A stretch of DNA of 46,399 nt from Phycisphaerae bacterium (GCA_018007255.1 JAGOQT010000001.1:1-46399); one strand, 5' to 3'. Shown: positions 1 through 16,446, counted from the first letter of the stretch. Program-made: numbers and translations. Notes: generated from the sequence alone by a model not told the origin.

Positions 1-161
1 AGATTGGACGGTTCCTAGCCAAGTGTGGTGACAATCGAGGATTTGAACATGCAGGACAGGTAATGCATCCATGCGCTGGATAGGCTTGCCCTCTATTGCC
101 GTCTTGGCTGCATGTTCAAATCCTCGATTGTCACCACACTTGGCTAGGAACCGTCCAATCT
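1..161. repeat. Perfect 54-bp inverted repeat (arms 1-54 and 108-161, 53-nt spacer) at the window edge. It is a fold-back copy of coding sequence.
   Basis: The reverse complement of 1-54 equals 108-161 at 54/54 positions. Pairing stops at 55/107 (g/g). Arm 108-161 is in-frame sequence of the minus-strand HEAT gene (..EIGRFLAKCGDNRGFEHA..), and arm 1-54 is its inverted duplicate. Confidence 0.95.
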
Positions 162-663: not shown

Positions 664-785
664 GTGATAGTCCCCTTCGTCAAGAACACCGAATTGTGTT
701 GGCACATGTGTCATCCAAACAGACCGACGTCATTTCCCACGAACGTCTCCACATCAGCAATGGTGTAGTCCTCCAAACGCACCCC

Positions 786-2015
786 CTACTGGGGACATGC
801 AGAACACGGTTTCTGCTGCGCCCACCCCTTATCCTCGGCACACCGACATATGTCGTAACCTAGTTCGTGGAAACACGTCTCCGCTGCCTCACGGGCTCGG
901 TATTCCCCACCATAGCAGTCGCCTATCTCGTTGTACTTCTCCTCCAGGTGGCGATACAGTGGACGGTCAATCTTGCTCTCGAAGAATGCAGCCGCAGCCT
1001 GGCATGTGATCGTGTTGGAATCGCTACAGTTGATCTGAAGTGGGTCCAGATAGCCGCGATCTTCAAGCCAGCCAGGAACGGTGTCCCAGAAATCCGACCA
1101 CTCCTGAACATGGGTACCTTCGTGAATGGCTATGCAGTCAGCGTCACTCACAGCGTAGCATCCTGCATCATCTGGATTACATGGGTCGTAGTATATGAAA
1201 GCTGTGGCATAGGTACAGTAGTTGTCCTTGTTCACGATACCAGGACTGTTACAGTCCCAATCCTGAAAGCGTTGATAACAGACCCCTGCATACATCCTAG
1301 TCCACAGGTCAAAGCGAGGCTCCCATGCACAATCATTGTAGACAGCCTCGTAGTTCTCGGTCTGATAGCCTGGATATGCCTCCCCACAGTGCTTAGAATT
1401 GGCACAATTGGGATCTACTGTACCTAACCACTGCGAATTCACGCCGCCCACCCCTGCCACGCACCCCGCCGGCAACGTCACCGTGACGACTCCTTCAAAG
1501 GTACATGGATCATCATCCCGGTCGCTGTCGTCACAGCCATACCAGGCGGGATCTGGTACATCGTCCACCGTCACACTGAAAACCACTGTCCCTATGCACG
1601 GCGGCGCCCGCCAACCGACCCAGTCGTTCGTGGTATTGGTCAGCCACGTCCCTGTCTGGCAATTCGTTCCAGTAGTCTTGCTCCAACTATACGTCAATGA
1701 ATCAGACTCCTGATCCTCTCCGCCCACGGCATCTTTCCAGCGGTCGTCATCCCAGGCCGTCACACTGTGTTGGGCCGTATTGCATAGGCACGTATCGTAT
1801 ACATTCATGGATCCCTCAATCCCGGTGTCAGGAGTCCAACACTGGCAGTACCCGCAGGAGCACCACCCGTAACCCTCGACACAGGTGGTGCCGCAACTGC
1901 CAGCTGGAGGACAGGTTGTGGACACATAACACTGGCAATCATAGCCACAGTCGCAGCACTCGCCGCAGCCATAGTAGGGCGAACACTCCACACCTGCTTC
2001 CAGTACACAACCCAA
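786..2015 (-). CDS. Cysteine-rich secreted protein with an HExxH zinc-metallopeptidase-like motif and a PKD-like segment. The frame probably continues upstream to 2138 across an in-frame TAG.
   Basis: A 409-codon ORF (track start is a TTG right after a TAG). It contains IAIHEGTHVQEW (HExxH), a dense Cys pattern (CGECCDCGYDCQC...) and LTYSWSKTTG (PKD-like). The same frame upstream (2019-2138) encodes a signal-peptide-like KSGYDGWALTACGILVLSCTMATVA followed by more Cys-rich sequence. Confidence 0.6.
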   Translation of the reverse strand: MGCVLEAGVECSPYYGCGECCDCGYDCQCYVSTTCPPAGSCGTTCVEGYGWCSCGYCQCWTPDTGIEGSMNVYDTCLCNTAQHSVTAWDDDRWKDAVGGEDQESDSLTYSWSKTTGTNCQTGTWLTNTTNDWVGWRAPPCIGTVVFSVTVDDVPDPAWYGCDDSDRDDDPCTFEGVVTVTLPAGCVAGVGGVNSQWLGTVDPNCANSKHCGEAYPGYQTENYEAVYNDCAWEPRFDLWTRMYAGVCYQRFQDWDCNSPGIVNKDNYCTYATAFIYYDPCNPDDAGCYAVSDADCIAIHEGTHVQEWSDFWDTVPGWLEDRGYLDPLQINCSDSNTITCQAAAAFFESKIDRPLYRHLEEKYNEIGDCYGGEYRAREAAETCFHELGYDICRCAEDKGWAQQKPCSACPQ

Positions 2016-2134
2016 CTACCCCGCGTACTCCATACAGTCCGGGCAATCCGGCGGCGGACATGCCACCGTTGCCATCGTGCACGACAAGACCAGTATACCA
2101 CAGGCTGTCAGGGCCCATCCATCGTATCCACTCT

Positions 2135-4315
2135 TCAGTGTCCCGCCCCCTTCCTTGTCAGGAGATCGAGCCTTGTCTGGACCGCCTTCGCCTGTTCATC
2201 CATGGGATCCGCCACGGCCAGGTAGGTCCGGAACAACTCCGCTGCAGCGGTCATCTGGCCCATGCGCTGGTACGTCCCGGCCAGGTGCAGAAGGATGGGA
2301 CGCCACTGCCTGGCCTCGGGATATCTCTCCAGGAACCTCTGGTAGGAGGCGGCCGCCTGCTCCCATTGGCCCTTCTGGGCCTGAATGTGACCCAGCCTCA
2401 GGAGGGCCCCCTGGGCTAGTGAGCAATCCGGATACCCGCCAGCCAGGGCCTCATAGGCCTGCTCGATTCTGGCCTCTGCCTCCAGCATCGGCACCTTGCC
2501 CAGGTCCCTGAGCCTTGCATAGCACGGCCCGATCATGCCCTGGGCACTCCAGGCATACCTGTAGTCAGGCCATTGATCCACCACGTTCTGGTAGTATTGG
2601 ACGGCCTTCTCGTAGTCCCCAAGGTACTTGCGGTACAGCACCCCGCTGAAGTACCAGGCGTCCGCGGCATAGGCAGACTCGGGCAGTCCCGTGATGATCC
2701 GATCCCAGACCACAAGGGTCTTTCTCAAGGAGGCGTTGACCGCATCGTCCGCACCGCCTCTTTGCTTCTTGGCCATGGCCTGGTTGTAGTACTCGTCGCC
2801 CACGCCGAAGACCGCCTCACCCAGGTCAGGGTCGTCTCTGAAATCAGTGATGAGGACGTCTATGGCCTTCTGGACACCAGGATCGTCCTCCCTGGCTGCC
2901 AGCAGCCTAGCCATGCCCGCCCTGGCCCAGATCAACTGTCCATCCCCCTTGGCCGTGTGGTCCAAGACGTGCTTGTAGATCTGCTCAGCCTTGTCCGGCT
3001 TGCCTGCCACAAGGTAGGCATCCCCCAAGCGACACAGCTCTGTAGGCAGGGTCGGCTGGCCTGCAAAGACCGTCATCAGCCGGTTGCCTGCTGCCTCAGC
3101 CTCCTTCTCATTGCCCTCCAGGATCCACGACTTGGCCAGCTCCGTCTGGGACCACATCGCGTACTGGTCGTCCTTTGACGACTGCTCTGCATTGTACTGG
3201 TGCACCTGACGCGCCTGCACAGGCCTCGTCTGCCGATACCGCATGGCCGTATGATACACCTCCTTGGCTGGGGTCTTGTTCTGTGAGAATGCAGCGATCA
3301 GCCGATTAAAGGCCTCCTCCACCGTGGTATTGGCACCGGGCGGGGATTCCTTGTCTAGGATCGCCAGCTGTGCCCTGACCGCTGCGTCGCTGTCAGGCCA
3401 ATGATCCACCACATACTGATAGTACTGCCTGGCCTGCTCAGGCTTGTTGGCCTTGCTGTACGCTATGCCTACCTGGTACGCCTCCTTGGGTAGCGTGGCC
3501 TGATCGGAGAAGACCTGCACCAACCTGCCGAACTCCTGGTCTGCCGCTGCATCGTCGGCCTTGCTGATGGCCGATTTGATGATCTCGACCTGGGAGTACA
3601 TCCCTTGGAGGGCATTGGCGTAGTGCTCCACGTTGTATTGATGGAGCTTGAGGGCAATCTCAGGCTTCCTCACGTTCCTGTAGTGCTTGCCCAGGTTGTA
3701 GATCGTGCCTGCAATGTCCTTGTGCTGGGCAAAGTCTGCCAGGAGGGTGTCCACGGCTGCATTGGCCGCCTTGTCGTCTGATCTCTCCAGGTGGGAGTGG
3801 ATGATATCCCTCTGGCTGTGGACAGCCCACTCGGTGTCCTTCCACCTCCGGATCACGGACTGATAGATCTGCAGGGCCTTGTCGGGTGCCCCTTGGGGTG
3901 GTTTGACGTCCTTGTGTCCTCGGCCGACCTCATACACAGCCTGAGGCAGACCGGCATTCCCTGCAAACCGCTCCAGCATCTGCTGATAGGCCGCCTCGGC
4001 CTGAGAGGTCTTGTTGGCCGCCACATACAGCAAGGCCAGTCCCTTCTGTGCAGCAAGCTGCTGGTCTTGATCCGTGGCCTGCTCCAGCACGGCCTTGTAG
4101 AGCTTCTCCGCCTGGTCGTACTGCCTGCCCTGGACCAGACCCCCTGCCTCCGTAAGCTGCTCCGCCACACCGGCGAAGGCCGAGACCGGCAGCAGAAGCC
4201 ATACAAGACCCATCCAGACTAGATATGAGTGCTTGGGCCAGGCCGTTGATGTCGATCTGCCTCTCGCGCTTGGCCTCCATCCTGCCTGCCGGCGTGCTCC
4301 TTTGCCCTCGCTCAT
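2135..4315 (-). CDS. Membrane-anchored TPR-repeat protein, paralogue 1 (726 aa)
   Basis: ATG at 4315 preceded by GAAAGGAGCC (SD), giving MSEGKGARRQ... A basic N-terminus is followed by a hydrophobic segment, YLVWMGLVWLLLPVSAFAG. Many TPR-like helices follow (AEKLYKAVLEQ, ALQIYQSVIRRW, ARQYYQYVVDHWPDS, AVQYYQNVVDQWPDY). The first ~466 aa are near-identical to the ORF at 14470-16446. Confidence 0.8.
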   Translation of the reverse strand: MSEGKGARRQAGWRPSARGRSTSTAWPKHSYLVWMGLVWLLLPVSAFAGVAEQLTEAGGLVQGRQYDQAEKLYKAVLEQATDQDQQLAAQKGLALLYVAANKTSQAEAAYQQMLERFAGNAGLPQAVYEVGRGHKDVKPPQGAPDKALQIYQSVIRRWKDTEWAVHSQRDIIHSHLERSDDKAANAAVDTLLADFAQHKDIAGTIYNLGKHYRNVRKPEIALKLHQYNVEHYANALQGMYSQVEIIKSAISKADDAAADQEFGRLVQVFSDQATLPKEAYQVGIAYSKANKPEQARQYYQYVVDHWPDSDAAVRAQLAILDKESPPGANTTVEEAFNRLIAAFSQNKTPAKEVYHTAMRYRQTRPVQARQVHQYNAEQSSKDDQYAMWSQTELAKSWILEGNEKEAEAAGNRLMTVFAGQPTLPTELCRLGDAYLVAGKPDKAEQIYKHVLDHTAKGDGQLIWARAGMARLLAAREDDPGVQKAIDVLITDFRDDPDLGEAVFGVGDEYYNQAMAKKQRGGADDAVNASLRKTLVVWDRIITGLPESAYAADAWYFSGVLYRKYLGDYEKAVQYYQNVVDQWPDYRYAWSAQGMIGPCYARLRDLGKVPMLEAEARIEQAYEALAGGYPDCSLAQGALLRLGHIQAQKGQWEQAAASYQRFLERYPEARQWRPILLHLAGTYQRMGQMTAAAELFRTYLAVADPMDEQAKAVQTRLDLLTRKGAGH

Positions 4316-4563: not shown

Positions 4564-4710
4564 GCAAAGATGGCCATTTCCAGACACACCCCCTTGACTG
4601 CCAAGGCATTACAGGCCGGTCCTGACCGTCCAGATGCCTCAACAAGGTCCCCCATCGTCGGGCTGACCGGCATCTCCTATAGCGCGCCAGATGCACCCGG
4701 GTGGGCCGCC

Positions 4711-7700
4711 TTACCTTGCGTCGAGCACCTTGGACGGAGTGGTCGGCTTGGGCTTGACTCCAGGCCAATCCTGGTATCCCTGGAACTCCTGCTCGTGTTG
4801 CTCAAACGAGGCCCGGTCTCGATCCGAGATCCGCTTCAGGTCCTCTTGAGTCCCGGCCACGGCCTCCGCAGGCCGGATCACCTCCGCACGCACAAAGACG
4901 TACAGCTTGCTCTGTACGTCGCTGTTGGAGATCCCCCGAAACGCCCCGCCCACCAGCGGCAGATCGCCCAGGATCGGTACCTTGGTCCCTCCCTTGGACT
5001 GATTCAGCTTGAGCATGCCCCCCAGGATGATGGTACTTCCATCCGGGACCGTCACTACGGTCTTGACGTCGCTGGCAGTCAGGTCAGGGGGCCTGTCCCG
5101 CGTGATCGTCCCAAAGTCCGACCGGGTCAAGGTGATCTCCAACCTGAGCAGCTGGCCCTCGCTGATGTGCGGGGTGATCTCCATGGTGATCCCAGCCTCG
5201 TACGACTGGTAGTCTATGGCCGTCTCGATCAGGTTGGTCTGCTGGCCCGCTGTCCCGGAGGTGACCGGGATCGAGGACTTCTTCTCCACGTAGGTCGTGT
5301 CCGTGGTCTTGATGATCCCCTTCTCGTTGTCCGGGTGCCCTCTGGGCGAGGACCTTGGGCTTGGCCAACACCCGACCGTAGTTCTTGGTCTGCATGGCCG
5401 TCAACAAGGCATTGATGTGCAGGTCCGCGTAGAAGCCCGTGCCTGCCCCGGAGTTGGCCTGGAAGTCGATGAACTGGCGCAGCGAGCCGGGCTCCAGGAG
5501 CTTCTCCGGCACGGTGGTGTCCTCATCGACCATGAACGACCCGGTCTGGCCGCTGGTCTGCCGCATGTCCGGCAGGCTCCCCACCAGGTTTAGGTCGTAG
5601 TTGAACTGGTCGCTCTTGCGGATCTCCACCAAGGTCACGTCAATGAGCACCTGGGGACGCCTGCGGTCCAGGGTCCTGATGAGCTTGCTGATCCACTCCT
5701 GGTTCTCCCTGCTGCCATACACCACCAGCGAGAACGTACCCTTGTCCGGCACGATCAGGATCTCGTCCTCGAGTCTGCGAACGACCTGCTCAACCTTGGC
5801 CTCCTTGTCCTTGACCGTCTCCGCAATGAGCCTGCCCAGGACCTCTGCCAGGGCCTCGGGGTCCTGGTTCTCCAGGAAGTAGATCTCGTAGGGGATGGCC
5901 TCCTGCCTGACCTGGGCATCCACGCGCTGGATGACCCGGGAGATCTGCGTGTGCGCAAACTCCGTGGCATTGATCAGCAGCGAGTTGGTGGACTCCAGTA
6001 CAGAGACCTGGGTCTCCTGGAGCAGGGCGGACTCATCGGCAGGACCATCGCCCGCCCCGGCTGGGGCGGGGGACGTGGACCCAGGGGCCTGCACCGATGC
6101 AGGGCTGGTCGCCGGCCTGGCCTTGTCCCCTATGAATCCAAACTCCTCCAGCTTCTTCTTGACCTCAGAGGCGTCCACGTACCGGATGTCATAGGTCTTC
6201 AGGATCCGCAGGTCCTCAGGGGCCACGTCCACCTGGGCCAGGACGGTCCTGATCCGGCCGTGCTGCTGGGCCGTGGCGTTGATCAGGAGGGAATTGGTGG
6301 ACTCCAACACCGTGACCTGGGTCTCCTGCAGGATGACCCTCTCACCCTTATCTCGGGATCCACCCTCGGTCTTGGAGCTGAACAGTGAGGTCGCACCTGG
6401 TCCTGAGGGATCCGGCCCAGCCTTGCCCAGCACGTCCAGGTCCTCCAGCTTCCTCTTGGCCTGGCCAGCGGTCATGTGCACGATCGCGTAGGTCTTCAGG
6501 CTCCGCAGGTCGCTCTGCTCCACGTCCAGGGCGTCGATGACCTCTTCCACGATTGCCAGTTGATCGGCCTGACCGATCATCAGGAGCCGGTTGGTCCTCT
6601 CATCCACATCCAGGTACACGGTGTCCTTCTCAGTCGACTCCAACGGCGTTGGGCTTGTACCTGTGCCCAGGGAGGACCTCGGAGCCGGCGCCCCGCCGGA
6701 CAGGAGAGAGGGGGTCGCGGGCTTGTCCGTTGCCCCACCTGGGGAGGTGCCGGAAGAGGCGGCCGTGACCCTGACCGGCACGGTCTGAAGCTCTGCTGCC
6801 AGGGCCTCGACCTTGGTAGCCAGGCTCCCTGCCATGGTGTAGCGCAGGGGCCTGTACCGAAACTCCCTGGCCCTGCCAGGCCGGTCCACCAGGTCCAGCA
6901 ACTGCTCGATCCTGGCCATGCGGTACGCATAGCAGGTCACGATCAGGGTGCCCGTCTCTGCTATCGGAGAGGCCGATACGCTGAGCTTGAGGTTGTTGAG
7001 CAGGTTCATGGCACTGGCGGTGTTCACGTGCCGAAGGCTGAAGACCCGCGTGACCACCATGTCTCCTGCCGTCATGGTTGCACCATCGGGGCCTACCAGG
7101 GCAGGGTCCACGTCCAGGGCGTCTGTGACCGGCACGATCGTGACCAGACCAGCCCTGTGAGATGTCATGGCCAGGCCTTTGAACTTCAACACAGACTCCA
7201 GGAGTGCATACAGGTCCTTGACCCTGACCTGGCCCTGGAGCTTGCCGTGCAGGCGCAGGGAGACCGACTGGCCCTTGAGCTTCTCGGGGTCGAACAGGTA
7301 GTCCAGGCTCAGGTACTCTGCAGCCAGGTCCAGCAACTGGGTCATCTCCAGGCGGTCAGGCAGCTCCAGCTCCAGGATATCGTCCCCGTTGGCCAGGGTG
7401 GGCCCATCGAATGTGACAGAGGTCTGAGGCTCTGCAGGCAGGTCTGCCTGAGCACGTGCCTGGCGTGCAGGTCCCTGCGACATGGCCGTCTGCTCCGGCT
7501 CGTCCACAGAAGGATCGGTGCGTGCAACCGGTGGCTGGGCGATCCGAGAGATGGCTTCCTCCGCAGGGGCGTTACCCGCCTTGGGGTCTCCGGCCTTGGC
7601 CTGAGCCGCAGTCGCGGGCTCCTGCTTGGGCTGGGTCCGGACAACGGGCTGGACCGGCAACGGAGAGACAGGCTCAGAGGGGATGGGAGTCGGCTGCTGA

Positions 7701-8254
7701 ACTGTATCACCTCTGGCCTGGCGCAGGGCTGCAGGGCCTGCCTCCATCAGGATGGCCAGGTCCTCCTGGAATCGGCCAGGGATGATGGCCACAACCGAAT
7801 CACCGTGGATGTCGATGATCCCTCGTGCAGCAGCCGTTCCTGGAGGCAGCGCAGCAAAGGTCCCAATGGAGATGCCGCCCAGGGCCTTGGCAATCTGGTC
7901 GTTGGTCGCGAGCCCCCTGGCAGCAGACAGCGGGGCAACAGTCTGAACTACGTATGGCTCATCAGAATCGATCAAGTCCAGGACGATCCTTGCCTTGTGC
8001 ACCGTCTCAGTAGGACCGGTGACGGTAACGGCGACGACAGAAGAGACCTCGACCGTGCCCAGGCCAAGGTCGGCCAGGACCTCCTTGGCGCGGTCGGGTG
8101 CAATGGCCTTGAGCACGAAGACCTTCCGTTCCTCCAGCAGAGGCTTGGTACCTTCAGGTGCGGGTCCTTGGACGCAGCCGCAGAAGAGCAGGACTGCGGC
8201 AATGACTGCTGCCTGCCCCTCCCTACGTCGATGAGGTGTACCTCTGCACACCAT
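4711..8254 (-). pseudogene. Secretin (GspD/PilQ superfamily, ~1180 codons) with its reading frame interrupted by one extra nucleotide near 5320-5345
   Basis: Two track ORFs (5084-8254 and 4711-5289) together make one secretin. ATG 8254 follows AGGAG, giving the lipoprotein-like signal MVCRGTPHRRREGQAAVIAAVLLFCGC. Three secretin-N-like repeats are present (..LESTNSLLINAT..). The frame-A text ends sensibly at ..NYGRVLAKPKVLA and then becomes Gly/His/Asp/Arg-rich nonsense. The frame-B text resumes with DNEKGIIKTTDTTYVEKKSS...VPILGDLPLVGGAFRG...LYVFVRAEVIRP, the canonical secretin C-domain. Total length is 3544 nt = 3n+1. Confidence 0.75.
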
Positions 8255-8293
8255 GCTCGTCTCCTGGTGACTATCCAGGTACCCAGGGGCTGG

Positions 8294-8932
8294 TCACTCC
8301 TCGCCATCCGGATATGTCCCGGATCGCGGCTCTTCCGGCAGCACTGGATAGCCGGAGGATGACACCTGCTTGTTGCCGGACCGGACCTGCCGGACCAAGG
8401 TCCTCTGCGCGGGACTCCGTTCCAACGAGATCTCACGGATCTGCTGGCCATCACGGCTGCGGACAACCACCATGCCGCGTCTGACCTCCTGAACCACCCA
8501 CGGGCCGACCTGGGAGTCCTTCTTCACCCATCTGCCCGCCCCCTCTGCGCTGGCAGATTCGACGATCAGGGCCATGGACCGATCCGGTTGGCCTGGATAC
8601 AGGCTTATCGCCTGGACCGTGAACTTCACCGATGAGACCACAGGTCTTATCGGTGGATGGTCGGACTGTCGGACTGTCGGACTGTCCGACCGTCGGACAG
8701 ACAGAGCTGGATTCAGGGTGGCCGCAAATGCCTGCGCGTGTGCCACCAGCGGGGAGATACTGCCTTCAGAGCCGTCCGCCCTCCCGCTGTTTGCGCGTCC
8801 TCTCTGCTCTGTCACGCTCGGCAGGGTACAGACCCGCTCGGCGTCGTTGGCCGGCCTTGGGCGACACGTCTCCACCAAGACCCACGCAGTCCCGATCCAT
8901 GCAAGGATACTAGTGCCGTGTAGAAGGTGCAT
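8294..8932 (-). CDS. GspC/PilP-like secretin-associated inner-membrane protein (212 aa). The start is uncertain; a TTG at 8977 is the alternative.
   Basis: MHLLHGTSILAWIGTAWVLVETC is an N-terminal hydrophobic anchor. The C-terminal segment VKFTVQAISLYPGQPDRSMALIVESASAEGAGRWVKKDSQVGPWVVQEVRRGMVVVRSRDGQQIREISL matches the pattern of GspC-HR/PilP beta-sandwich domains. The gene ends 39 nt upstream of the secretin start. Confidence 0.45.
   Translation of the reverse strand: MHLLHGTSILAWIGTAWVLVETCRPRPANDAERVCTLPSVTEQRGRANSGRADGSEGSISPLVAHAQAFAATLNPALSVRRSDSPTVRQSDHPPIRPVVSSVKFTVQAISLYPGQPDRSMALIVESASAEGAGRWVKKDSQVGPWVVQEVRRGMVVVRSRDGQQIREISLERSPAQRTLVRQVRSGNKQVSSSGYPVLPEEPRSGTYPDGEE
8661..8700. 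repeat. Octanucleotide tandem repeat (tcggactg x3 perfect plus 2 imperfect units) inside the GspC/PilP-like CDS
   Basis: tcggactg occurs at 8661-8668, 8669-8676 and 8677-8684. It is followed by tccgaccg and tcggacag. Together these encode ..SVRRSDSPTVRQSD.. on the minus strand. Confidence 0.9.
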
Positions 8933-9017
8933 CACGACCCCTTGAATCCAAATGCGAGATGGTTCCCCCTTGGTCAACTGATCCCCACAACAAGCGGTTG
9001 ATCCATCTATCCAAATG

Positions 9018-10385
9018 TCAGGGCATCTGGTCTTCCAGCCAATGCCCGGCTAGTATAGCCACGTCCTTCAGGTCCACCCGGCAGTCGCCGTTGATGTCGC
9101 CGGCAATAATCGTCTCACATACGGGCTTGCCAAAGTACGACTTGCTGGCCTCGGCTGTTCCGCCGTAAGCGCCCATGTTGATCCTGCCCCCGTTGGGGAA
9201 GGGCTCAGGCCCTACGGGACTGAGCGGGTCCCCTGCATCGATGCACGGACTTGTGACCTGGTCCTGAACCCAGGTCTTGCTGACAGAGTCCCACCTGCCT
9301 GCCTGAGACTTGAGGTGGTAGTCACCGTCGACCCAGAAGTCATCGCTTAGCTTGTCTGGAGTCCCATTGGGATCCCAGTGGCCTGGATCCACGAAATGAG
9401 GATCGCCTGTAGTCCAATGCCCGTGAGCACGTTCATGAGGATCATATAAATCATTTGGATCGTCTCCTATGAGGCTGTACCCAACTTGCAGTTCCATTGG
9501 CCATAGAATTCCAACATCAGGCAGCGCGATGTCATTGCCAAGAAGGCCCGCAGTATTACGCCACACAATGGAATTGTACAAGTGGGATATATCGTCGCCG
9601 TCCGGTCCGCAGGATATCCCACCGCCTAGGCCTTCCTTGCCTATTCGGTTTCCGGTCACAGTACAGTTGACGAACTGATGGCTCCCGCGACAATAGATGC
9701 CTCCGCCTTGGTGTGTGGCGATATTCCCTACGACCAGACAATTCAGCACTCGGGCATTCTCGCGGTGGAGGCTCATTCCTCCACCTCTGTCGTACCCGGT
9801 CCAACTTGCCACATTCCCCATGATGATGCAATTCTCTACCCGGACATCCGACTGATAGGCGGCAATTCCCCCGCCATCCCTTGCCGCATTACCTATGATG
9901 ATGCAATCCCTTATCGTAGGACTGCTCTCCATGCAGTAGATAGCGCCTCCATCGTGAGGCCCCATATACCCTTGTGTCACTGTCAAACCCTCAACGACGG
10001 AATTAGCGTCTTCGTGGGAGTGAAAACTAAAACCCCGATGGTACTCTGGATCGATCTTTTGGGGCGGGCCGTAAGAGGGGTAACGTCCACCGCATTGGAT
10101 GATACAGGATTCAGGACCTACTTCACTTTTGAGGATGATCGCCTTGCCCTTGAAGTCAATGTCGCGGTTGCCTTCACCTGCGTAGGTACCAGGGGCAACT
10201 ATGACGGTATCGCCGTCATTGGCGTCATCGATGGCCGCCTGAATAGTCAAGCACTCTGAGGGAACCATGATTACCGTCGCTTGGCTTGCGCAGCACACAA
10301 TCAAACAGAGCAATACATTCACAATCCTGTTCACCGCCGATATGGAAGGACTTTCTCCGATTCCCACAGCCATTCCTCCTTTCAT
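9018..10385 (-). CDS. Secreted right-handed parallel beta-helix repeat protein with a C-terminal dockerin-like Ca-binding repeat (455 aa)
   Basis: The ATG at 10385 overlaps the upstream TGA (ATGA). The hydrophobic N-terminus is NRIVNVLLCLIVCCASQA. The protein contains TVIVAPGTYAGEG and repeated NC(I/L/T)(I/V)xGN turns (NCIIMGNVA, NCLVVGNIA, NCTVTGNRI). The C-terminus is GDINGDCRVDLKDVAILAGHW. Confidence 0.75.
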   Translation of the reverse strand: MKGGMAVGIGESPSISAVNRIVNVLLCLIVCCASQATVIMVPSECLTIQAAIDDANDGDTVIVAPGTYAGEGNRDIDFKGKAIILKSEVGPESCIIQCGGRYPSYGPPQKIDPEYHRGFSFHSHEDANSVVEGLTVTQGYMGPHDGGAIYCMESSPTIRDCIIIGNAARDGGGIAAYQSDVRVENCIIMGNVASWTGYDRGGGMSLHRENARVLNCLVVGNIATHQGGGIYCRGSHQFVNCTVTGNRIGKEGLGGGISCGPDGDDISHLYNSIVWRNTAGLLGNDIALPDVGILWPMELQVGYSLIGDDPNDLYDPHERAHGHWTTGDPHFVDPGHWDPNGTPDKLSDDFWVDGDYHLKSQAGRWDSVSKTWVQDQVTSPCIDAGDPLSPVGPEPFPNGGRINMGAYGGTAEASKSYFGKPVCETIIAGDINGDCRVDLKDVAILAGHWLEDQMP

Positions 10386-11575
10386 CTTGTCCCTTGTGGT
10401 TTTGCCTCTGATGGTCTCGCGTCTGATCCCGCTTCCGTCGTGACATTCACCCTGTATTTGCTACTGTTGTTACGCCACCACTCGAGGCATTCGGATCGGG
10501 TGGCACCTTTCGGCAATTGAGAGGTGAGGCTTCTCTTGAATGGGTTTTCGCGGACAGGCAGCACCATCTGCGGCACATAAGATACAAGCGAGCCGTCACC
10601 TTTCTCTATCCGCTCCATGATATATGGAAGCGAGGCCAAGCCCCCTCGTGTCATTTCCTCAAAGAGCCGCTTTTCTGAGGTAGCCCCAAAGCCTTCACGT
10701 CCCTTCTCACTTCGGCGATTCCATACGGCATACATTTCCGCAGCGTGTTTTTGGGCAAATTCCCCTCCCTTGCGGCTCCAATGCTGCCAAAGAGTCAAAT
10801 AGACCTTATCAGCCGACAACTCTCCCAATTCAGGGAAGTCCGCAACACAATATGTACGCTGTCCACTGATATACTTCACGGGGAAGCGGGCATGAGTCAG
10901 GTCTTCCAGACAACGATGCACTCTATAGTCCAATTTCCCCATATTAGAGGCATGTTGAATCAATGGATTAGCGGCTCGGATATCGCCAAGAAGAGCCAAA
11001 GCGTATGCGGCATACTCATATCGTTGCCCCAGCGTTGGCAAATCGCGGATGATCGGGTCAATTGCACGAGTATCTCCCAGATAACCCAATGCCAGGATAG
11101 CGTAATCCGCGAGGATGTATTGTTGTCGATCCTCTCGCGGATTGCCTGATACCCTGCCTGGGACATTAGGCTTCTCGATGGCTTCAATCAGAGGCTGAAA
11201 AGCCTGCTGGTCTCCTATAGCACCAAGGCTTAAGGCAGCATAACAACGGGCAATATGGAAATATATGCCTTCTGTATCCCCGAATAGACTATCTCTTGTC
11301 CAGTTAGGTTCACCACGCACGACAGCAACAAGAAAAGAGACAGCATCTTTACTGTCAAGCCCCTTTGTAGGCTGAAACCGAGGCTCCGACGGAGAGGCAA
11401 CGGGAAAATATACCAAGTTGAACCCTGCCCGACCGCTCCCGGCGGCTTTGACCGCTGTCTCCAGTAAGAAGGGAAACTCCATACTTGCGTGGCCATCCTG
11501 GCACCATCCTCTGGTTACACACATAAGAACGATAAAGACAACCAGGCCAGGACATGTCCATCTATTGTCATGCAT
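10382..11575 (-). CDS. Exported HEAT/PBS-lyase-like repeat protein (397 aa)
   Basis: ATG 11575 is preceded by GAAAGGA. The signal-like N-terminus is MHDNRWTCPGLVVFIVLMCVTRGWCQD. Repeats: ALSLGAIGDQQAFQPLIEAI, ALGYLGDTRAIDPIIRDL, ALALLGDIRAANPLIQH. Confidence 0.7.
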   Translation of the reverse strand: MHDNRWTCPGLVVFIVLMCVTRGWCQDGHASMEFPFLLETAVKAAGSGRAGFNLVYFPVASPSEPRFQPTKGLDSKDAVSFLVAVVRGEPNWTRDSLFGDTEGIYFHIARCYAALSLGAIGDQQAFQPLIEAIEKPNVPGRVSGNPREDRQQYILADYAILALGYLGDTRAIDPIIRDLPTLGQRYEYAAYALALLGDIRAANPLIQHASNMGKLDYRVHRCLEDLTHARFPVKYISGQRTYCVADFPELGELSADKVYLTLWQHWSRKGGEFAQKHAAEMYAVWNRRSEKGREGFGATSEKRLFEEMTRGGLASLPYIMERIEKGDGSLVSYVPQMVLPVRENPFKRSLTSQLPKGATRSECLEWWRNNSSKYRVNVTTEAGSDARPSEAKPQGTR

Positions 11576-11596
11576 TTGCTATCCTTTCAGTGCTAT

Positions 11597-11625
11597 AGTA
11601 TAGCTAATCGCTCGTTTTGCTACAA
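11597..11625 (-). promoter_or_regulatory. Possible internal promoter (TTGTAG-17-TATACT) in the AT-rich PAD-HEAT gap
   Basis: On the minus strand TTGTAG lies at 11625-11620 and TATACT at 11602-11597, with a 17-nt spacer. This is the only AT-rich gap inside the operon. The call rests on hexamer matching only. Confidence 0.25.
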
Positions 11626-11632
11626 TATAAAA

Positions 11633-14473
11633 CTAGTCCCACCAATTGTTACTTGGGATGGTACGTATGGCATTCGTACCACAATGAATCTCGCCTCCGC
11701 CTCCAGACGTTCCGCCATGAAGCGGCCAACAGTCTACAAAACCGCTGAAGGGAGAATTGATCTTGAACACATCCACACCATTTGCGGTTCTTGGACCATA
11801 AGGATTCGGTACATGTAAGCTCCCGCCCGAATTCAGCAGATTCACCATGCCAGGTAGAAGTGCACTGGCGGACCAATTCTGATCAAACAAGGCTGGTACA
11901 CTCGCAAAAGTCGTAATGGACGTCTGCTGTAATAGCAGATTTCTTAGATCTGAAATACGTGAGGGCCAAGCTTGCTGAACGCCACTATAGGCATTCCATA
12001 AGTCCCTAATCGCCATACAAACAGGGGCGCCTTCTGAACCTCCATCGTACACATGCCCAAACGCAAAGTTTCTTTTGCTCTTCTTGACCAGAATATATCG
12101 GCATTCGTAGGGATCTCCATTCCAGGTCCCATCAATGGTTACACTGTTTGAAGTGTTTGAGACTATCCTCTTCTTCTCTGGGTTTATCTCAAAGCCCCCC
12201 TGTGTTGCGGTGTAAATGATCACATACCCATCACTCCAGTCTACCTGAGACCAGTCATGTAATCCCGATCCATCTCTGAAAGTACTATTACTAACTGTCT
12301 CAGTTACAACCCCGAAATCCTCTGGACCTTCACAGAATACAGTTCTGAACTCGGAGCGAGCAACAAGTGTGTATCTCCATCGATCCGGATAGTTGACAGG
12401 ATCAGGAATAGGATCCCAAAGACGCCCTTTGCTCGTTAGGTTATCATAAACATAGACTCTTGTGGCATCACTATGGACGATTTCACGTACCTCGATTTGC
12501 CAATACCATAGATCGATGATCTCGACATACCCTCCGGCCCATTGATCTGTCGACCAGGTTGCTGTCGAGATCTCTATGTATTGAGAAGCAGCCCCTGTAA
12601 TCAAGCCATTGGCCTGTGTGTTGTTATTGATGAAGTTCTCGACAAGCGAGATGCCCAAGTCAACATCCACAATGTAGGCAGACGTGCCATTGAAGCTCAC
12701 CAATTCATCAATGTGGCCCACGCTAAGATATCCCGTCTGTGGTGATACAATCACAGACTGAACACCCTGTGCTGCAATGAAGTTGGTAATGTCACCACTG
12801 CATCCCGTTCCAACAACGACATGTTCATCTGCTACGGCCTCAATATTTCCACCATAATCGTATTTTGGGTTTCCCGAACCAACGGTGAAGACACCTACAC
12901 TGGGTGCCAATAGGCTATTGGGCCAGGAGTCTAACGCCCTACCTTGACGCGGCAAGTCCATTACCACGTGCATTTGGCCTCCCGGCCACTTGGTGTAGCC
13001 GATTTCGGCAGCATCCTGTAGCCACGGATCTCCTGCATAAGTTGTGCCAAGATCCATACTTACAATACTAGTCCCCACTGCGGCAATGTCATCGTCTTGG
13101 TCTGAGTCACTCCGATCTGGTGAATAGACCACTTCAGAGGAAGCATAACCAGGCAAAAGAATGAACGGCGACGATCGAAGCTTCACTACTTCATCCGTAA
13201 AAACGCTTCCTCCACCCTGATCTTGAATTCTCAGTCTAAGATAACACGCCTCTCCCACGGAATTAGAGAATCGATAGGCCTCAATATACCAATTCAAGGT
13301 ACTGCCTATGACAGTGGTCACTTCAAGGCTATTCACCCACGACCAACTCCCGCCATTACAGACGAATCCAAGCACATGCACAGATCCCCCCGCTCCAGGA
13401 GTATCACCGTCGAAAACCTGCATAAATGCATTCTGGCTGTATTCTGTGATCAGGTTCCCCGAATCATCGACGATCTCAGTAAAGGCTTTCCAGCCTGTCG
13501 GCAAGGAGGTCTCGCGAATCTGTACCGGTAGAAGATCAGTCAAGTCAGCACTGCCATCTATGTGCCCGTTGTCACAGTCCTTCTCGGCGGGCGTGCCGGG
13601 ATCGTCATCATCGATGTTCACCGGCACAATCGCCGCTTGAGTCTCCTCCAGGTCCTCCTCCGCCGGTGTTCCGTCGACGGTTCCATTATGGTTGGAATCC
13701 ACATCGATGTCCACTTGGATAACGCTGATGAGATGGGAATCAGTGAAGGACCTTCGACGCGGAATCGTCAACTGAATGACCGCCGTGTAGGTACCAGGCG
13801 CAGCCCGTGTCCCATCATTCTTCTTCCCATCCCAGGTCGTCTGTTGCGGCCCCAACCCATCACCCAATCGTATGCTTTTTATCGTGGCGCCCGATTGGTC
13901 CTTGATCAACAGGTCCGCCACCCACCGCAGATAGTAACGCAGCCTGTTGTTGTTCGGCAAGATCGTGTAGTAGATATCGGCTGGAGTACTGCTCTGATAT
14001 GCCATGTACTCAGCCGTATCACGATTCGGCGGATCGTCATCAATGGATACTGCAATCACATAGACCTCCGCGTAGTCATCGTCAGTCAGCCCATAGCTGT
14101 TCTCGGCCTCTACATCGACCTTATAGGCCCAAGGCGTAACAAACGAGAGGTTCCTGAGCGAACTGGCATAATAACCCTCTTGGTCGTATCCCCCATCGTG
14201 CTCAATGGGATCCGGTGGTGGATTCGTTGAAACCCAATAGCCGCTGAATGGTCCCCAGTCTACCCACCTCTGCCATTGCCAATCCCAGTCCTGGATATAG
14301 GTCCCGGACCAGTCCTCCGCCTCAATGCTCAGATGCTCGCCTGGTCCTACACAATGCAGCCAATCGGAGATCCAGACCTCTGGTGGCAACGGCCAACCAC
14401 AGCATAGGCTCGCTGTTGTGCAGACGGATACTGCCATCAATGCCAGGGTTTTGAGTATTCCTTTCGCTCTCAT
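11633..14473 (-). CDS. Secreted protein-arginine deiminase (PAD) family homologue with an N-terminal FlgD-Ig-like region (946 aa)
   Basis: The ATG at 14473 overlaps the TPR2 stop (ATGA). The signal-like N-terminus is MRAKGILKTLALMAVSVCTTASLCC. TWDGKKNDGTRAAPGTYTAVIQL resembles FlgD-Ig. VNIDDDDPGTPAEKDCDNGHIDGSADLTDLLPVQIR parallels the human PAD4 middle domain ([35 protein letters not shown]). DPWLQDAAEIGY (12995-13024), DYGGNIE, LSVGHIDELVSF (12701-12721), LPGMVNLLNSG and EIHCGTNAIR (Cys codon 11681-11683) parallel DRWIQDEMELGY, DSFGNLE, LAVGHVDEFLSF, FPDLVNMLVLG and EVHCGTNVCR of PAD4 as I recall it. Confidence 0.8.
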   Translation of the reverse strand: MRAKGILKTLALMAVSVCTTASLCCGWPLPPEVWISDWLHCVGPGEHLSIEAEDWSGTYIQDWDWQWQRWVDWGPFSGYWVSTNPPPDPIEHDGGYDQEGYYASSLRNLSFVTPWAYKVDVEAENSYGLTDDDYAEVYVIAVSIDDDPPNRDTAEYMAYQSSTPADIYYTILPNNNRLRYYLRWVADLLIKDQSGATIKSIRLGDGLGPQQTTWDGKKNDGTRAAPGTYTAVIQLTIPRRRSFTDSHLISVIQVDIDVDSNHNGTVDGTPAEEDLEETQAAIVPVNIDDDDPGTPAEKDCDNGHIDGSADLTDLLPVQIRETSLPTGWKAFTEIVDDSGNLITEYSQNAFMQVFDGDTPGAGGSVHVLGFVCNGGSWSWVNSLEVTTVIGSTLNWYIEAYRFSNSVGEACYLRLRIQDQGGGSVFTDEVVKLRSSPFILLPGYASSEVVYSPDRSDSDQDDDIAAVGTSIVSMDLGTTYAGDPWLQDAAEIGYTKWPGGQMHVVMDLPRQGRALDSWPNSLLAPSVGVFTVGSGNPKYDYGGNIEAVADEHVVVGTGCSGDITNFIAAQGVQSVIVSPQTGYLSVGHIDELVSFNGTSAYIVDVDLGISLVENFINNNTQANGLITGAASQYIEISTATWSTDQWAGGYVEIIDLWYWQIEVREIVHSDATRVYVYDNLTSKGRLWDPIPDPVNYPDRWRYTLVARSEFRTVFCEGPEDFGVVTETVSNSTFRDGSGLHDWSQVDWSDGYVIIYTATQGGFEINPEKKRIVSNTSNSVTIDGTWNGDPYECRYILVKKSKRNFAFGHVYDGGSEGAPVCMAIRDLWNAYSGVQQAWPSRISDLRNLLLQQTSITTFASVPALFDQNWSASALLPGMVNLLNSGGSLHVPNPYGPRTANGVDVFKINSPFSGFVDCWPLHGGTSGGGGEIHCGTNAIRTIPSNNWWD

Positions 14474-16446
14474 GGCTGGCTTCCCTCCTTGGATACATTG
14501 CCACGGGCGTATTCCAAGTATTTTCTGGCCGCGGGGACACCTGGGCTTGACGGATACAGCTCCAGCAAGTGCCTGTATGCCTCGGTAAGGGTAGATTCTG
14601 CCTTGCCCCTGGCCTCCGGGTCCGAATCCATCTCTGATCGCAACAACATTTCTTTGTACATCTTGACGATCCGATGCTGGGCCATCCAGGCATATTCATA
14701 CTCCGGCCAAGTCTCCACGATCTTCTGATAGTACGGCATGGCCTTCTCATCCTGCCCCAACAGCCGGTAGGTCTCCGCCGCCATATGATAGGCCTGGGCC
14801 GTGATGAGAGACGAAGGCAGCTCCCTGATGATCCTCTCCCAGATGACCAAACCCTTCTCGAAGTTGTCATCTGCCTTGTCCTTGCGGCCAGCCTTGTTCT
14901 CAGCCAGGGCCTCTGACCAGTATTGCTCCCCAACACTGAACACCACCTTGGACAGGTCCGAATGGTCTTTGAAGTCAGTAGTCATGGCATCCAAGGCCTG
15001 CTGGCCTGCCGTATCATTACCCTTGGCAATCTCCAGCTTGATAAGACCCGCCCTGGCCCAGATCAACTGTCCATCCCCCGTGGCCGTGTGATCCAGGACG
15101 TACTTGTATATCTGCTCGGCCTTGTCGGCCTTGCCCGCTTGAAGGTAGGCATCCCCCACCCGGCATAGCTGCGTGGGCAAAGTAGGCTGGCCTGCAAAGA
15201 CAGTCATCAGCCTGTTGCCTGCCGCCGCAGCCTCCTTCTCATTGCCCTCCAGGATCCACGACTTGGCCACCTCCGTCTGCGACCACATCGCGCACAGGTC
15301 GTCCTTGGACGACTGCTCTGCATTGTACTGATGGACCTGCCGGGCCAAGATAGGTCGGCTCTGCCGATACCGCATCGCCGTATGATACACCTCCTTGGCT
15401 GGGGTCTTATTCTGTGAGAATGCAGCGATCAGCCGACTAAAGGCCTCCTCCACTGTCGTATTGGCACCTGCCGGGGATCCCTTGTCTAGCATCGCCACCT
15501 GTGCCCTGACCGCTGCGTCGCTGTCAGGCCAATGATCCGCCACATACTGATAGTACTGCCTGGCCTGCTCAGGCTTGTTGGCCTTGCTGTAGGCTATCCC
15601 TACCTGGTACACCTCCTTGGGCAGGGTCGCCTGACCGGAGAAGACCTGCACCAGCCTGCCGAACTCCTGGTCTGCCGCTGTGTCGTCGGCCTTGCCGATG
15701 GCCGATTTGATGATCTCGACCTGGGAGTACATCCCTTGGAGGGCATTGGCGTAGTGCTCCACGTTGTACCGATGGAGCTTGAGCGACATCTCAGGCTTCT
15801 TGAGGTTCCTGTAGTGCTTGCCCAGGTTGTAGATCGTGCCTGCGATGTCCTTGTGCTGGGCAAAGTCCGCCAGGAGGGTGTCCACGGCTGCATTGGCCGC
15901 CTTGTCGTCTGATCTCTCCAGGTGGGAGTGGATGATATTCCTCTGGCTGTGGACGGCCCACTCGGTGTCCTTCCACTTCTGGATCACGGACTGATAGATC
16001 TGCAGGGCCTTGTCGGGTGCCCCTTGGGGTGGTTTGATGCCCTTGTATCCTCGGCCGACCTCATACACAGCCTGAGGCAGACCGGCATTCCCTGCAAACC
16101 GCTCCAGCATCTGCTGATAGGCTGTATCCGCCTGAGAGGTCCTGTTGGCCGCCACATACAGCAGGACCAGGCCCTTCTGTGCAGCCAACTGCTGGTCCTT
16201 GTCGGTAGCCTGCTCCAGCACGGCCTTGTAGAGCTTCTCTGCCTGGTCGTACTGCCTGCCCTGGACCAGACCCTCTGCCTCCGTGAGCTGCTCAGCCACA
16301 GCGGCGAAGGCCACAAACGGCAGCAGAAGTAATACCAGACTGATCCAGGCTAGATATGAGTGCTTGGGCCAGGCTGTTGATGTCGATCTGCCTCTCTCGC
16401 TTGGCCTCCATCCTGCCTGCCGGCGTGCTCCTTTGCTCTCGCTCAT
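14470..16446 (-). CDS. Membrane-anchored TPR-repeat protein, paralogue 2 (658 aa)
   Basis: ATG 16446 is preceded by GAAAGGAGCC. MSESKGARRQ...YLAWISLVLLLLPFVAFAA is near-identical to paralogue 1 up to ..GDGQLIWARAG, after which the TPR-like C-terminus diverges. Confidence 0.8.
   Translation of the reverse strand: MSESKGARRQAGWRPSERGRSTSTAWPKHSYLAWISLVLLLLPFVAFAAVAEQLTEAEGLVQGRQYDQAEKLYKAVLEQATDKDQQLAAQKGLVLLYVAANRTSQADTAYQQMLERFAGNAGLPQAVYEVGRGYKGIKPPQGAPDKALQIYQSVIQKWKDTEWAVHSQRNIIHSHLERSDDKAANAAVDTLLADFAQHKDIAGTIYNLGKHYRNLKKPEMSLKLHRYNVEHYANALQGMYSQVEIIKSAIGKADDTAADQEFGRLVQVFSGQATLPKEVYQVGIAYSKANKPEQARQYYQYVADHWPDSDAAVRAQVAMLDKGSPAGANTTVEEAFSRLIAAFSQNKTPAKEVYHTAMRYRQSRPILARQVHQYNAEQSSKDDLCAMWSQTEVAKSWILEGNEKEAAAAGNRLMTVFAGQPTLPTQLCRVGDAYLQAGKADKAEQIYKYVLDHTATGDGQLIWARAGLIKLEIAKGNDTAGQQALDAMTTDFKDHSDLSKVVFSVGEQYWSEALAENKAGRKDKADDNFEKGLVIWERIIRELPSSLITAQAYHMAAETYRLLGQDEKAMPYYQKIVETWPEYEYAWMAQHRIVKMYKEMLLRSEMDSDPEARGKAESTLTEAYRHLLELYPSSPGVPAARKYLEYARGNVSKEGSQP

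Follow-up and report, generated by a model that had tools for sequence, protein, structure and literature searches.

A predicted exported protein-arginine deiminase with a tandem insertion in its catalytic domain, encoded in a TPR- and secretin-linked cassette of a Phycisphaerae bacterium

The window analyzed here (the whole stretch of 46,399 nucleotides of a Phycisphaerae bacterium, GCA_018007255.1 JAGOQT010000001.1:1-46399) encodes a homologue of protein-arginine deiminases (PAD), which very probably belongs to the PADI family in the strict sense and has kept its active site intact. Considering this gene together with its neighbors, we hold with moderate confidence that its product would be an exported, catalytically competent PADI enzyme, that its export would be tied to a machinery comprising a tetratricopeptide repeat (TPR) protein and a secretin, and that the HEAT-repeat protein encoded directly downstream would be its dedicated partner. 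Coordinates of the features are collected in Table 1; the loci and proteins compared with the window are designated by L and P numbers, respectively.

The assignment to the family is based on profile, sequence and structure comparisons, all pointing in one direction. Pfam PF03068 (PAD) matches the 946-aa open reading frame (ORF) with E=1.1e-24 and 87.7 bits (cutoff 25), in two stretches with an insertion between them, and the gene calls of the Joint Genome Institute (JGI) on seven metagenome contigs from several samples give an identical product of 946 aa (100% identity). A phmmer search against all PDB sequences returned vertebrate PADs only (n=24, E<=5e-12), the best match being human PAD2 (E=3.5e-17), to which residues 249-594 and 844-945 of the query align. 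The sequence-only reading, from which this work started, had described the C-terminal ~450 residues as PAD4-like; the motifs on which it relied are there, but the contiguity is not, as the PAD-like part covers ~700 residues (251-946) and is split by an insertion of ~180 aa. The better fit to an unrelated guanidino-modifying family, which that reading had named as a possible refutation, did not appear: the scans of Pfam and NCBIfam, listing matches to E=1, contained neither PF04371 (PAD_porph/agmatine deiminase) nor arginine deiminase. No PAD_N domain was matched on residues 1-253 even at E<=10 (FlgD_ig was found instead), and, because PAD_N is lacking, the protein is predicted to be of the two-domain bacterial type, consisting of PAD_M and the catalytic domain (PMC8826395). 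Word-index homology searches were shallow (8, 8 and 1 matches); the useful depth of homologues was supplied by an exhaustive search of 1.84 billion representatives, which gave 697 matches at E<=1e-3.

All four catalytic residues proposed earlier are present and conserved. The phmmer alignment pairs D487, H587, D589 and C931 with D351, H471, D473 and C647 of PAD2; the corresponding set of PAD4 we take to be D350, H471, D473 and C645. Together with E590 and H930, these residues are invariant among the eight closest relatives in the subfamily alignment and are kept in 101-104 of 105 bacterial homologues (>=96%; C931 in 103 of 105). The motif WLQDAAE (residues 484-490) occupies nucleotides 13004-13024 and VGHIDE (residues 585-590) nucleotides 12704-12721, so that both motifs were recognized rightly, while the intervals initially given for them, 12995-13024 and 12701-12721, have to be corrected; the Cys931 codon of HCGTN (residues 930-934) lies at 11681-11683, exactly as read. 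The fold was predicted with AlphaFold2 (AF2). The first run, with nine sequences only, reached a mean local confidence (pLDDT) of 49.6 and was not usable for the catalytic domain, while the second one, on residues 251-946 with the 105-sequence alignment, gave a pLDDT of 92.8 and a predicted template-modeling score (pTM) of 0.91. With this second model, the top 50 PDB matches found by Foldseek were all PAD1-4 (E=1e-27 to 1e-21, target-normalized template-modeling score, TM, 0.56-0.66), headed by Ca-bound PAD3 (7dan_C, E=1e-27, TM ~0.63). The structure prediction, proposed at the outset together with the profile check, yields a high-confidence model whose top 50 matches are to vertebrate PAD structures only.

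As to the profile check, PF03068 is significant, while the middle-domain profile PAD_M (PF08527) is weak in the query segment (E=0.027) and reaches 2.7e-13 in P0007, a relative with 32-36% identity. The middle domain is nevertheless recognizable, as the IgG2 domain of PAD2 aligns with it in the phmmer comparison, and the acidic segment that had been noticed as resembling the PAD middle domain, VNIDDDDPGTPAEKDCDNGH (VNIDDDD...DCDNGH), is located within it (residues 285-304, nucleotides 13562-13621). Its acidic cluster consists of N286, D288, D290, D299, N302, D310 and D313, accompanied by a DxDxDxNxNG loop at 255-267; the cluster positions hold the consensus residue in 73-88 of the 105 rows of the alignment, nearly all the remaining rows being gapped there. 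These positions correspond to the Ca3-5 ligands of PAD2, and the Ca1 residues Q486, E490 and E545 are conserved at >=90% in the same alignment (Table 1). The PAD2 positions obtained from the alignment agree with the ligand lists attributed to Slade et al. (2015), and PMC8599989 gives an overview of the PAD calcium sites. The enzyme would probably bind Ca2+ in its middle domain.

A feature overlooked in the sequence-only reading is the insertion in the catalytic domain. The alignment with PAD2 breaks off after the strand with the His-x-Asp motif, at residue 594, and resumes at 844; the interval amounts to 249 residues in the query, as against 74 in PAD2. This surplus of ~180 residues is made up of two all-beta units in tandem, of ~80 aa each (623-707 and 721-799), which are matched by the repeat profile with E=6e-19 and 5e-20. 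Self-alignment of the two halves in the query only was marginal (z ~3), and the repeat becomes clear only with the relatives, in which the consensus of the unit is G.aS....L.D....W....W.GG.v.I..G.G.GQvR.I..NT..T......W...PD.tS.Y.lv..S. The insertion has pLDDT 85-98 in both AF2 models and was the only part confidently predicted from nine sequences. The unit profile finds the unit at the same position in 42 of 141 PAD representatives; two copies are present in 23 of them and in the query, one copy in 18 and three copies in a single sequence. In a neighbor-joining tree, built on the catalytic core only, 12 of the 14 two- or three-copy sequences fall into one cluster, and the proteins with the tandem insertion would thus define a clade of bacterial PADs. 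Neither Pfam on the query insertion nor a search of the PDB sequences with the 18-unit profile gave a match. Two candidate relationships were tried and are kept as leads rather than classifications: PF09356 (Phage_BR0599) matched weakly 5 of 18 units (best E=0.007), and phage tail and "E1 FCCH" proteins of BFVD gave weak partial matches (E ~1e-4 to 1e-2, TM<=0.13). The unit may be a small beta-barrel in common with phage tail proteins, and the inserted domains probably contribute to substrate recognition.

The N-terminus provides grounds to consider the export of the protein across the inner membrane likely. It bears a basic n-region followed by a hydrophobic stretch, in line with the signal-peptide-like N-terminus of the sequence-only reading, and the N-termini of the homologues align at an A-x-A / A-C motif, followed by PP.VW; cleavage probably occurs before W27, the status of the protein as a lipoprotein being ambiguous. 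Besides, N-terminal hydrophobic segments were found in all the cassette proteins examined, namely the TPR, HEAT, beta-helix, 227-aa and secretin proteins and the second TPR and HEAT proteins (TPR2 and HEAT2). The FlgD-Ig-like module, also noticed earlier, is real (FlgD_ig at residues 188-235, nucleotides 13769-13912, E=4.3e-9). What had escaped the sequence-only reading is that the stretch of residues ~10-257 recurs, at 40-45% identity, at the N-termini of P0019, P0020, P0021, P0024, P0030, P0039, P0041, P0056 and P0133. In these proteins, which have no PAD, Pfam recognizes FlgD_ig/PKD only, and their C-terminal halves are unlike PAD and unlike each other; the heads of P0021 and P0041 (the latter in L096, 1109-3085) contain HExxH-like motifs, CTHELKHQE and CKHEREHQA, and in both cases an ATGA overlap connects the gene with the TPR gene upstream of it. 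A metagenome scan for the module retrieved seven loci, mostly short. The PADs P0003 and P0007 have no N-terminal module and likewise no upstream TPR gene. The module carriers thus show the hallmark of polymorphic toxins, a shared N-terminal delivery module with interchangeable C-terminal heads, and the PAD would be one of several interchangeable cargo heads.

The translational coupling to the TPR protein, claimed from the sequence at the outset, holds: the start codon of the PAD gene and the stop codon of the TPR gene overlap in ATGA, with the Shine-Dalgarno sequence AAGGAGG 7 nt upstream, and an (A/G)GGAGG...ATGA junction between TPR and cargo genes recurs in 9 of 9 loci. The adjacency of PAD and HEAT genes, as well as the TPR-cargo coupling, was followed through about ten loci. 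Homologues of the HEAT protein (30-49% identity) stand directly after PAD in L001, L003, L085, L088 and L107, and in L006 and L087 more distant PADs are succeeded by HEAT_2 proteins, so that a HEAT protein comes after PAD in every locus with a visible downstream gene. Distant PADs with the insertion are also followed by a HEAT-type protein, in a Thermoguttaceae metagenome-assembled genome (MAG; HEAT_2 E=7e-13) and, weakly, in Lentisphaerales MAGs. The identity of the HEAT proteins tracks that of the PADs across the loci. A Lentisphaerales MAG (L009, 2800-9100) contains a tandem pair of PAD-like ORFs (3882-5267 and 6096-7346). After the first comes a protein of 271 aa with a weak HEAT_2 match (5284-6099, E=0.008), and after the second a 266-aa protein without Pfam match (7328-8128); this looks like a local duplication of the pair of PAD and its partner, but a fragmented assembly may account for it.

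Further downstream, the beta-helix gene overlaps the HEAT gene by 4 nt, and its homologues (44-63% identity) occupy the equivalent position in L001, L003, L085, L088 and L107. Homologues of the 227-aa protein (34-38% identity) are encoded immediately 5' of a secretin in L085, L098 and L099, and in L088 a homologue takes the corresponding position, the contig stopping before any secretin. Because it combines a single N-terminal anchor with a beta region at its C-terminus that looks like the secretin-binding HR domain, this protein is a putative GspC/PilP-like partner of the secretin. The most complete counterpart of the cassette is in L085/L086, where the PAD is 47% identical and the order TPR, PAD (4-nt overlap), HEAT, beta-helix, 227-aa protein and secretin is that of the window; TPR-PAD-HEAT-beta-helix is seen in L003 and L107, the same with the 227-aa protein in L088, PAD-HEAT-beta-helix in L001 and PAD-HEAT in L087. 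With non-PAD cargo bearing the N-terminal module, L098 has TPR, cargo, four unknown genes, a 234-aa protein and a secretin, and L099 has TPR, cargo, a 328-aa protein, a 191-aa protein and a secretin. The secretin of the window has five Secretin_N domains in its N part (E=3e-38); the NCBIfam GspD model TIGR02517 gives it 181.8 bits for the N part and 92.7 bits for the C part, both below the cutoff of 351. Overall, we rate the chance that the PAD is functionally tied to the TPR/secretin machinery as slightly better than even.

Table 1. Features of the PAD gene, its cassette and the neighboring module in the window, with the calcium-site residues of the PAD (PAD2 residues, then those of the query)
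Feature	Position	Strand	Basis and remarks
PAD gene, cassette cargo	11633..14473	(-)	946 aa + stop; Pfam PAD E=1.1e-24
Signal peptide MRAKGILKTLALMAVSVCTTASLCCG	14396..14473, residues 1-26	(-)	Basic n-region and hydrophobic core, Kyte-Doolittle (KD) 1.94
N-terminal module	13724..14395, residues 27-250	(-)	Trp-rich PKD-like region and FlgD-Ig
PAD middle (Ig-like) domain	13202..13723, residues 251-424	(-)	PAD2 113-295 aligned to query 249-~430
Catalytic domain, first part	12638..13201, residues 425-612	(-)	Pfam PAD 425-595 = profile positions 3-201; holds W484, Q486, D487 (catalytic Asp), E490, D506, R509, E545, H587, D589
Catalytic-domain insertion	12074..12616, residues 620-800	(-)	Absent from PAD2/PAD4 and P0008
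Catalytic domain, second part	11636..12073, residues 801-946	(-)	Aligns with PAD2 552-661 including GEVHCGTN; holds H930, C931 (nucleophile) and a terminal WW motif
Ca1	PAD2 Q350, E354, E412; query Q486, E490, E545		Conserved
Ca3-5	PAD2 N154, D156, E158, D166, D169, D177, D180; query N286, D288, D290, D299, N302, D310, D313		Conserved or conservative
Ca6 loop	PAD2 D123, D125, D127, E131; query D259, N261, N263, D267		Conservative
Ca2 "switch"	PAD2 E352, S371; query A488, L507		Degraded
Ca4	PAD2 D389; query S525		Lost
Gatekeeper	PAD2 R347; query P483		Lost
TPR protein	14470..16446	(-)	658 aa, N-terminal signal anchor; TPR Pfam; gene call; ATGA overlap with PAD
HEAT-repeat protein	10382..11575	(-)	397 aa, signal peptide; HEAT_PBS E=1.9e-13
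Parallel beta-helix protein	9018..10385	(-)	455 aa, dockerin-like C-terminus; Pfam DUF1565 / Disaggr_assoc
Conserved ~227-aa protein	8294..8977	(-)	Start codon uncertain; one N-terminal hydrophobic segment
GspD-like secretin, frameshift-split	4711..8254	(-)	N-part ORF 5084..8254; C-terminal Secretin domain ORF 4711..5289
Second module, probably decayed	1..4315	(-)	TPR2, HExxH ORF, partial HEAT_2 protein
TPR2	2135..4315	(-)	
Cys-rich ORF with HExxH (HEGTH) motif	786..2015	(-)	
Partial HEAT_2 protein	1..663	(-)	Signal peptide; extends past window end

We propose the following scheme. The protein would be built of the signal peptide, a PKD-like/FlgD-Ig module of ~225 aa, the middle domain and the catalytic alpha/beta propeller, with two small beta domains inserted after the His-x-Asp strand of the latter. 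By analogy with the family, Asp487 and Asp589 would hold a peptidyl-arginine, whose guanidinium carbon would be attacked by Cys931, with His587 as the general acid/base, so that ammonia would be released and citrulline left according to the canonical Cys-thiouronium mechanism. The inner membrane would be crossed by Sec. As the gene order suggests, the TPR protein would be made 1:1 with the cargo via translational coupling, the N-terminal module would mark the cargo for the TPR/secretin route, and the GspC-like and GspD-like pair would serve as the exit through the outer membrane. The downstream HEAT protein could be a dedicated partner of the PAD, that is, an inhibitor (immunity protein) or a chaperone; in the specific role of inhibitor or chaperone we place only tentative belief.

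Several observations weigh against this interpretation. The first concerns the secretin, which is frameshifted near 5335-5345, at GTCCTC GCCCAGAGGGCACCCG GACAACGAG, as located by tblastn with intact homologues. An identical junction is found in L105, a contig from an independent sample, and, because the junction recurs in a different sample, an assembly error is not the cause; the split secretin could be a pseudogene, a split gene or a case of programmed frameshifting. The secretin-linked operon claimed at the outset is thus borne out by the gene order recurring in other genomes, but not by an intact secretin in this one. In the second module, the Cys-rich ORF, a second cargo gene, is preceded by a signal-peptide-like leader which ends at an in-frame TAG (2016-2018), and, due to this stop together with the frameshifted secretin, the export route may be defunct in this population. 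Further, neither the GspE ATPase nor the GspF platform nor pseudopilins were found among the sampled (not all) ORFs of the window or the listed genes of related cassettes; ATPase and pseudopilin genes of a type II secretion system (T2SS) could be located elsewhere in the genome. The 227-aa protein has no match in Pfam or NCBIfam, leaving the GspC-like assignment without profile support, and the function assigned to the HEAT protein is a guess made from gene position. The expectation that the variable C-terminal ~190 aa of the TPR proteins co-vary with the cargo was rejected, the identities being 22-40% for PAD-linked and 23-37% for non-PAD-linked proteins. As for the enzyme itself, the Ca2 "switch" is degraded, and the Ca4 ligand and the gatekeeper Arg are lost (Table 1); D506, the counterpart of PAD2 D370, is the sole residue of the Ca2 site to be kept, and the Ca2 column is variable among bacterial PADs. 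The Ca2 switch and the gatekeeper are a feature of vertebrate regulation and not a trait of the whole family. Regulation by the vertebrate switch is unlikely here, and, because of these losses, the enzyme may be regulated differently from vertebrate PADs or be less active.

The island to which the cassette belongs differs in composition from the rest of the window. The G+C content (GC) at third codon positions (GC3) is 0.52 in the PAD gene, 0.49 in the HEAT gene and 0.59 in the beta-helix gene, 0.71-0.77 in the TPR genes, the secretin and the gene of the 227-aa protein, and 0.90-0.93 in the neighboring core genes (L-fucose isomerase-like, SIS/CBS, MMPL), which sets positions 1-16600 apart from 17000-46399. 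The GC of the PAD gene is 16 points below that of the host, while the contigs of the relatives have 44-58% GC, their flanks matching the cargo gene. The PAD-HEAT-beta-helix part, and with it probably the whole cassette, entered by horizontal transfer from a donor of lower GC. No tRNA gene was found in the window, including the flanks of the island. Over 16.2 kb the window is 100% identical to the JGI contig 3300027914|Ga0268387_1002673. The genes of TPR and TPR2 are 92% identical in nucleotide sequence for ~1.6 kb, their proteins being ~90% identical in the first ~470 residues and ~37% in the last ~190; this mosaic suggests recombination or gene conversion.

In four longer related loci, defense or mobile genes were seen directly beside the cassette: TIR-AAA, WD40 and integrase genes in L001 (1-9000), an MmeI-type methyltransferase, an SNF2/PLD helicase and HEPN in L003 (1-7200), a GpA terminase, an SNF2 helicase and a methyltransferase in L085 (1-6500), and a type III CRISPR system with RT-Cas1 in L098 (1-6800). 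Searched against PADLOC-DB 2.0, the cassette proteins gave no defense-system match except a generic TPR one (E=0.002).

Whether the PAD is a weapon, matures proteins of its producer or is a relic concerns its role and not its identity. That it modifies extracellular, host or prey proteins, as suggested at the outset, is an inference. We regard it as possible, if rather doubtful, that the enzyme is released through the secretin and citrullinates surface or periplasmic proteins of competitors or prey, the periplasmic HEAT protein being the cognate immunity protein which blocks it during its passage through the periplasm of the producer. The common N-terminal module with interchangeable heads, including those of the HExxH type in P0021 and P0041, would fit such a function, and so would the signal-peptide-bearing gene that stands immediately downstream of PAD and is co-inherited with it, together with the second triad of TPR, HExxH protein and HEAT in the window. 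The cassette is, moreover, foreign DNA, and cassettes adjoin defense or mobile genes in other genomes. However, HEAT repeats are generic scaffolds, the non-PAD cassettes in L098 and L099 have no recognizable HEAT gene, a secretin does not by itself deliver proteins into target cells, and our literature search found no account of citrullination as an interbacterial weapon.

A less likely role is the maturation of envelope or surface proteins of the producer itself, e.g., the beta-helix protein, by neutralization of arginine charge, with the HEAT and TPR proteins as scaffolds. All the partners bear export signals, and the characterized bacterial PADs of PF03068 modify the producer's own peptides, such as citrulassin (bioRxiv 10.1101/2020.07.16.207027). 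The conservation of the PAD-HEAT-beta-helix triad in six loci, which would argue for a beta-helix substrate, is offset by L089, where a beta-helix gene is also near a non-PAD module protein, and by L087, where PAD occurs without it; nor is any arginine of a partner protein tied to the enzyme.

It is improbable, in our estimation, that the island is being inactivated, with the PAD stuck in the periplasm as a functionless protein whose active site has not yet decayed. The frameshift of the secretin in two independent samples, the in-frame TAG in the neighboring cargo gene and the strongly foreign codon usage speak for decay, but the ORFs of PAD, HEAT, TPR and beta-helix are intact, every catalytic residue is retained, and the PAD protein is 100% identical on the seven contigs from several samples; besides, the two parts of the secretin could still come together, or frameshifting could allow read-through.

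It is more improbable still that the enzyme acts on a non-protein or small guanidino substrate (free arginine, agmatine, a small Arg peptide, an Arg-rich polymer or a peptide made on the ribosome and modified after translation, RiPP) instead of citrullinating proteins. The catalytic residues are the same across the guanidino-modifying superfamily, the Ca2 site and the gatekeeper are unlike those of vertebrate PADs, and the catalytic domain carries a large insertion; yet no significant match leads outside PADI proper (PF03068 and the PAD1-4 structures), the arginine-, agmatine- and Porphyromonas-type deiminase families being absent from the scans listed to E=1, the PAD_M domain and its calcium cluster are retained, and no RiPP precursor or lasso-peptide genes are nearby. 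RiPP tailoring, as with citrulassin, was judged unlikely, because precursor and lasso genes are lacking nearby and the enzyme would be exported.

Returning to the exported PADI enzyme as the preferred interpretation, we note that it is not a new kind of enzyme, since bacterial PADs of PF03068 are established. Their supposed rarity in bacteria, asserted by the sequence-only reading, is right insofar as they are uncommon, but they are well documented (PMC8826395; bioRxiv 10.1101/2020.07.16.207027), and our own scan of 185,579 species genomes yielded at least 422, with many representatives in Planctomycetota, Lentisphaerota, Myxococcota and Cyanobacteria. Cummings et al. (2021; PMC8826395) described the two-domain PADIs of bacteria and fungi, and Harris et al. 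(2020; bioRxiv 10.1101/2020.07.16.207027) catalogued 837 PF03068 sequences, one Streptomyces PAD of which makes citrulassin. The query shares with these proteins PF03068, the PAD_M and catalytic domains, the lack of PAD_N, the catalytic residues and many of the calcium-binding ones. In the survey of Harris et al., gene contexts are diverse and the GC of PAD genes tracks that of the genome, whereas the query gene belongs to a conserved secretin cassette and departs in GC from its host. The phyla concerned here (Planctomycetota, Lentisphaerota and relatives) are not those emphasized in the two surveys. No mention of an insertion, a signal peptide or secretion was found in Cummings et al., this comparison covering their paper and not that of Harris et al.

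With vertebrate PAD1-4 and PAD6 (PF03068 and PF08527) the query has in common the alpha/beta-propeller fold (Foldseek E=1e-27), the four catalytic residues Asp-His-Asp-Cys, the ligands of Ca1 and an Ig-like middle domain that bears the Ca3-5 cluster, at an identity of 15-17% in structural alignments. In contrast to it, they have a PAD_N cupredoxin domain in place of the signal peptide and the PKD-like/FlgD-Ig module, lack the ~180-aa tandem beta insertion after the HxD strand and are cytosolic or nuclear, while the query is predicted to be exported; the Ca2-site residues and the gatekeeper Arg347 of the vertebrate enzymes are not conserved in it. The three-domain PADI of cyanobacteria, from whose lineage animals received their PADIs (PMC8826395), is likewise bacterial and agrees with the query in family and catalytic residues, but has a PAD_N-like domain, which the query does not; its matches (L031, L033, L035 and L072) span ~545 aa, as compared with 249-946 in the query, and for this reason must lack the insertion. 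PADs binned as archaeal were seen in Thermoplasmatota (L011 and L036) and Methanophagales (L062 and L073) MAGs, the ORF of L011 (4415-6520, 701 aa) having a signal-like N-terminus and a length sufficient to include the insertion. A single archaeal match was dismissed as a misattribution by Cummings et al. (PMC8826395), and those seen here may be binning contamination or real transfers.

The closest functional analogy is the Porphyromonas gingivalis enzyme PPAD (PAD_porph, PF04371), a secreted bacterial protein that citrullinates extracellularly. It belongs, however, to a different family of the guanidino-modifying superfamily, to which the query gave no match, is Ca-independent, prefers C-terminal Arg and is exported by a secretion system of type IX (T9SS). 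The export part of the cassette resembles the outer-membrane module of the T2SS in its multi-N-domain secretin, scoring best as GspD, in the small inner-membrane-anchored protein encoded 5' of it and in the presence of a TPR protein in the operon (cf. the pilotins PilF/TadD). It differs in that the cassette loci were seen without ATPase, platform and pseudopilin genes, and that, unlike the TPR pilotins, the TPR protein of the cassette is ~650 aa long and translationally coupled to the cargo, not to the secretin.

The remaining part of the window (19000-46399) harbors high-GC core functions, i.e., an NAD-dependent epimerase, a KpsF-like SIS/CBS protein, an MMPL transporter, SAM synthetase, an FAD-binding flavoprotein of the succinate dehydrogenase/fumarate reductase type and a GTPase with a TGS domain, as well as a polysaccharide cluster with GT4 glycosyltransferases, a Wzx-like flippase and a Wzy_C ligase/polymerase.

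Citrullination has been known chiefly from animals, as a regulatory and disease-linked modification, and the only well-studied exported citrullinating enzyme of bacteria, PPAD, comes from a different family. No earlier description appears to exist of the PAD clade distinguished by its tandem beta domains, of the export module, of the seemingly obligatory HEAT partner or of the conserved TPR/secretin cassette with swappable heads, and the main upside of the present finding is the biology of the cassette rather than the PAD homology. The cassette supplies reagents for further work, such as the inserted domain that would define the clade, the HEAT protein as a candidate inhibitor or chaperone, and the N-terminal module as an export tag. 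At its most far-reaching, and with a probability that we put as low, it could represent a modular type of envelope export not described before, with Planctomycetota, Lentisphaerota and related phyla as its main carriers, in which the TPR adaptor would recognize the PKD-like/FlgD-Ig module and pass the heads to a GspC/GspD-like conduit; the PAD would then be the first citrullinating effector directed against other bacteria (or against prey or host), with the HEAT protein as its periplasmic immunity protein and the tandem beta-barrel insertion serving target recognition. In any case, the architecture of TPR, cargo, GspC-like protein and secretin with swappable heads may be an unrecognized secretion arrangement, and the exported PADI in a mobile secretin cassette with a HEAT partner points to extracellular or periplasmic citrullination as an ecological tool of environmental bacteria.

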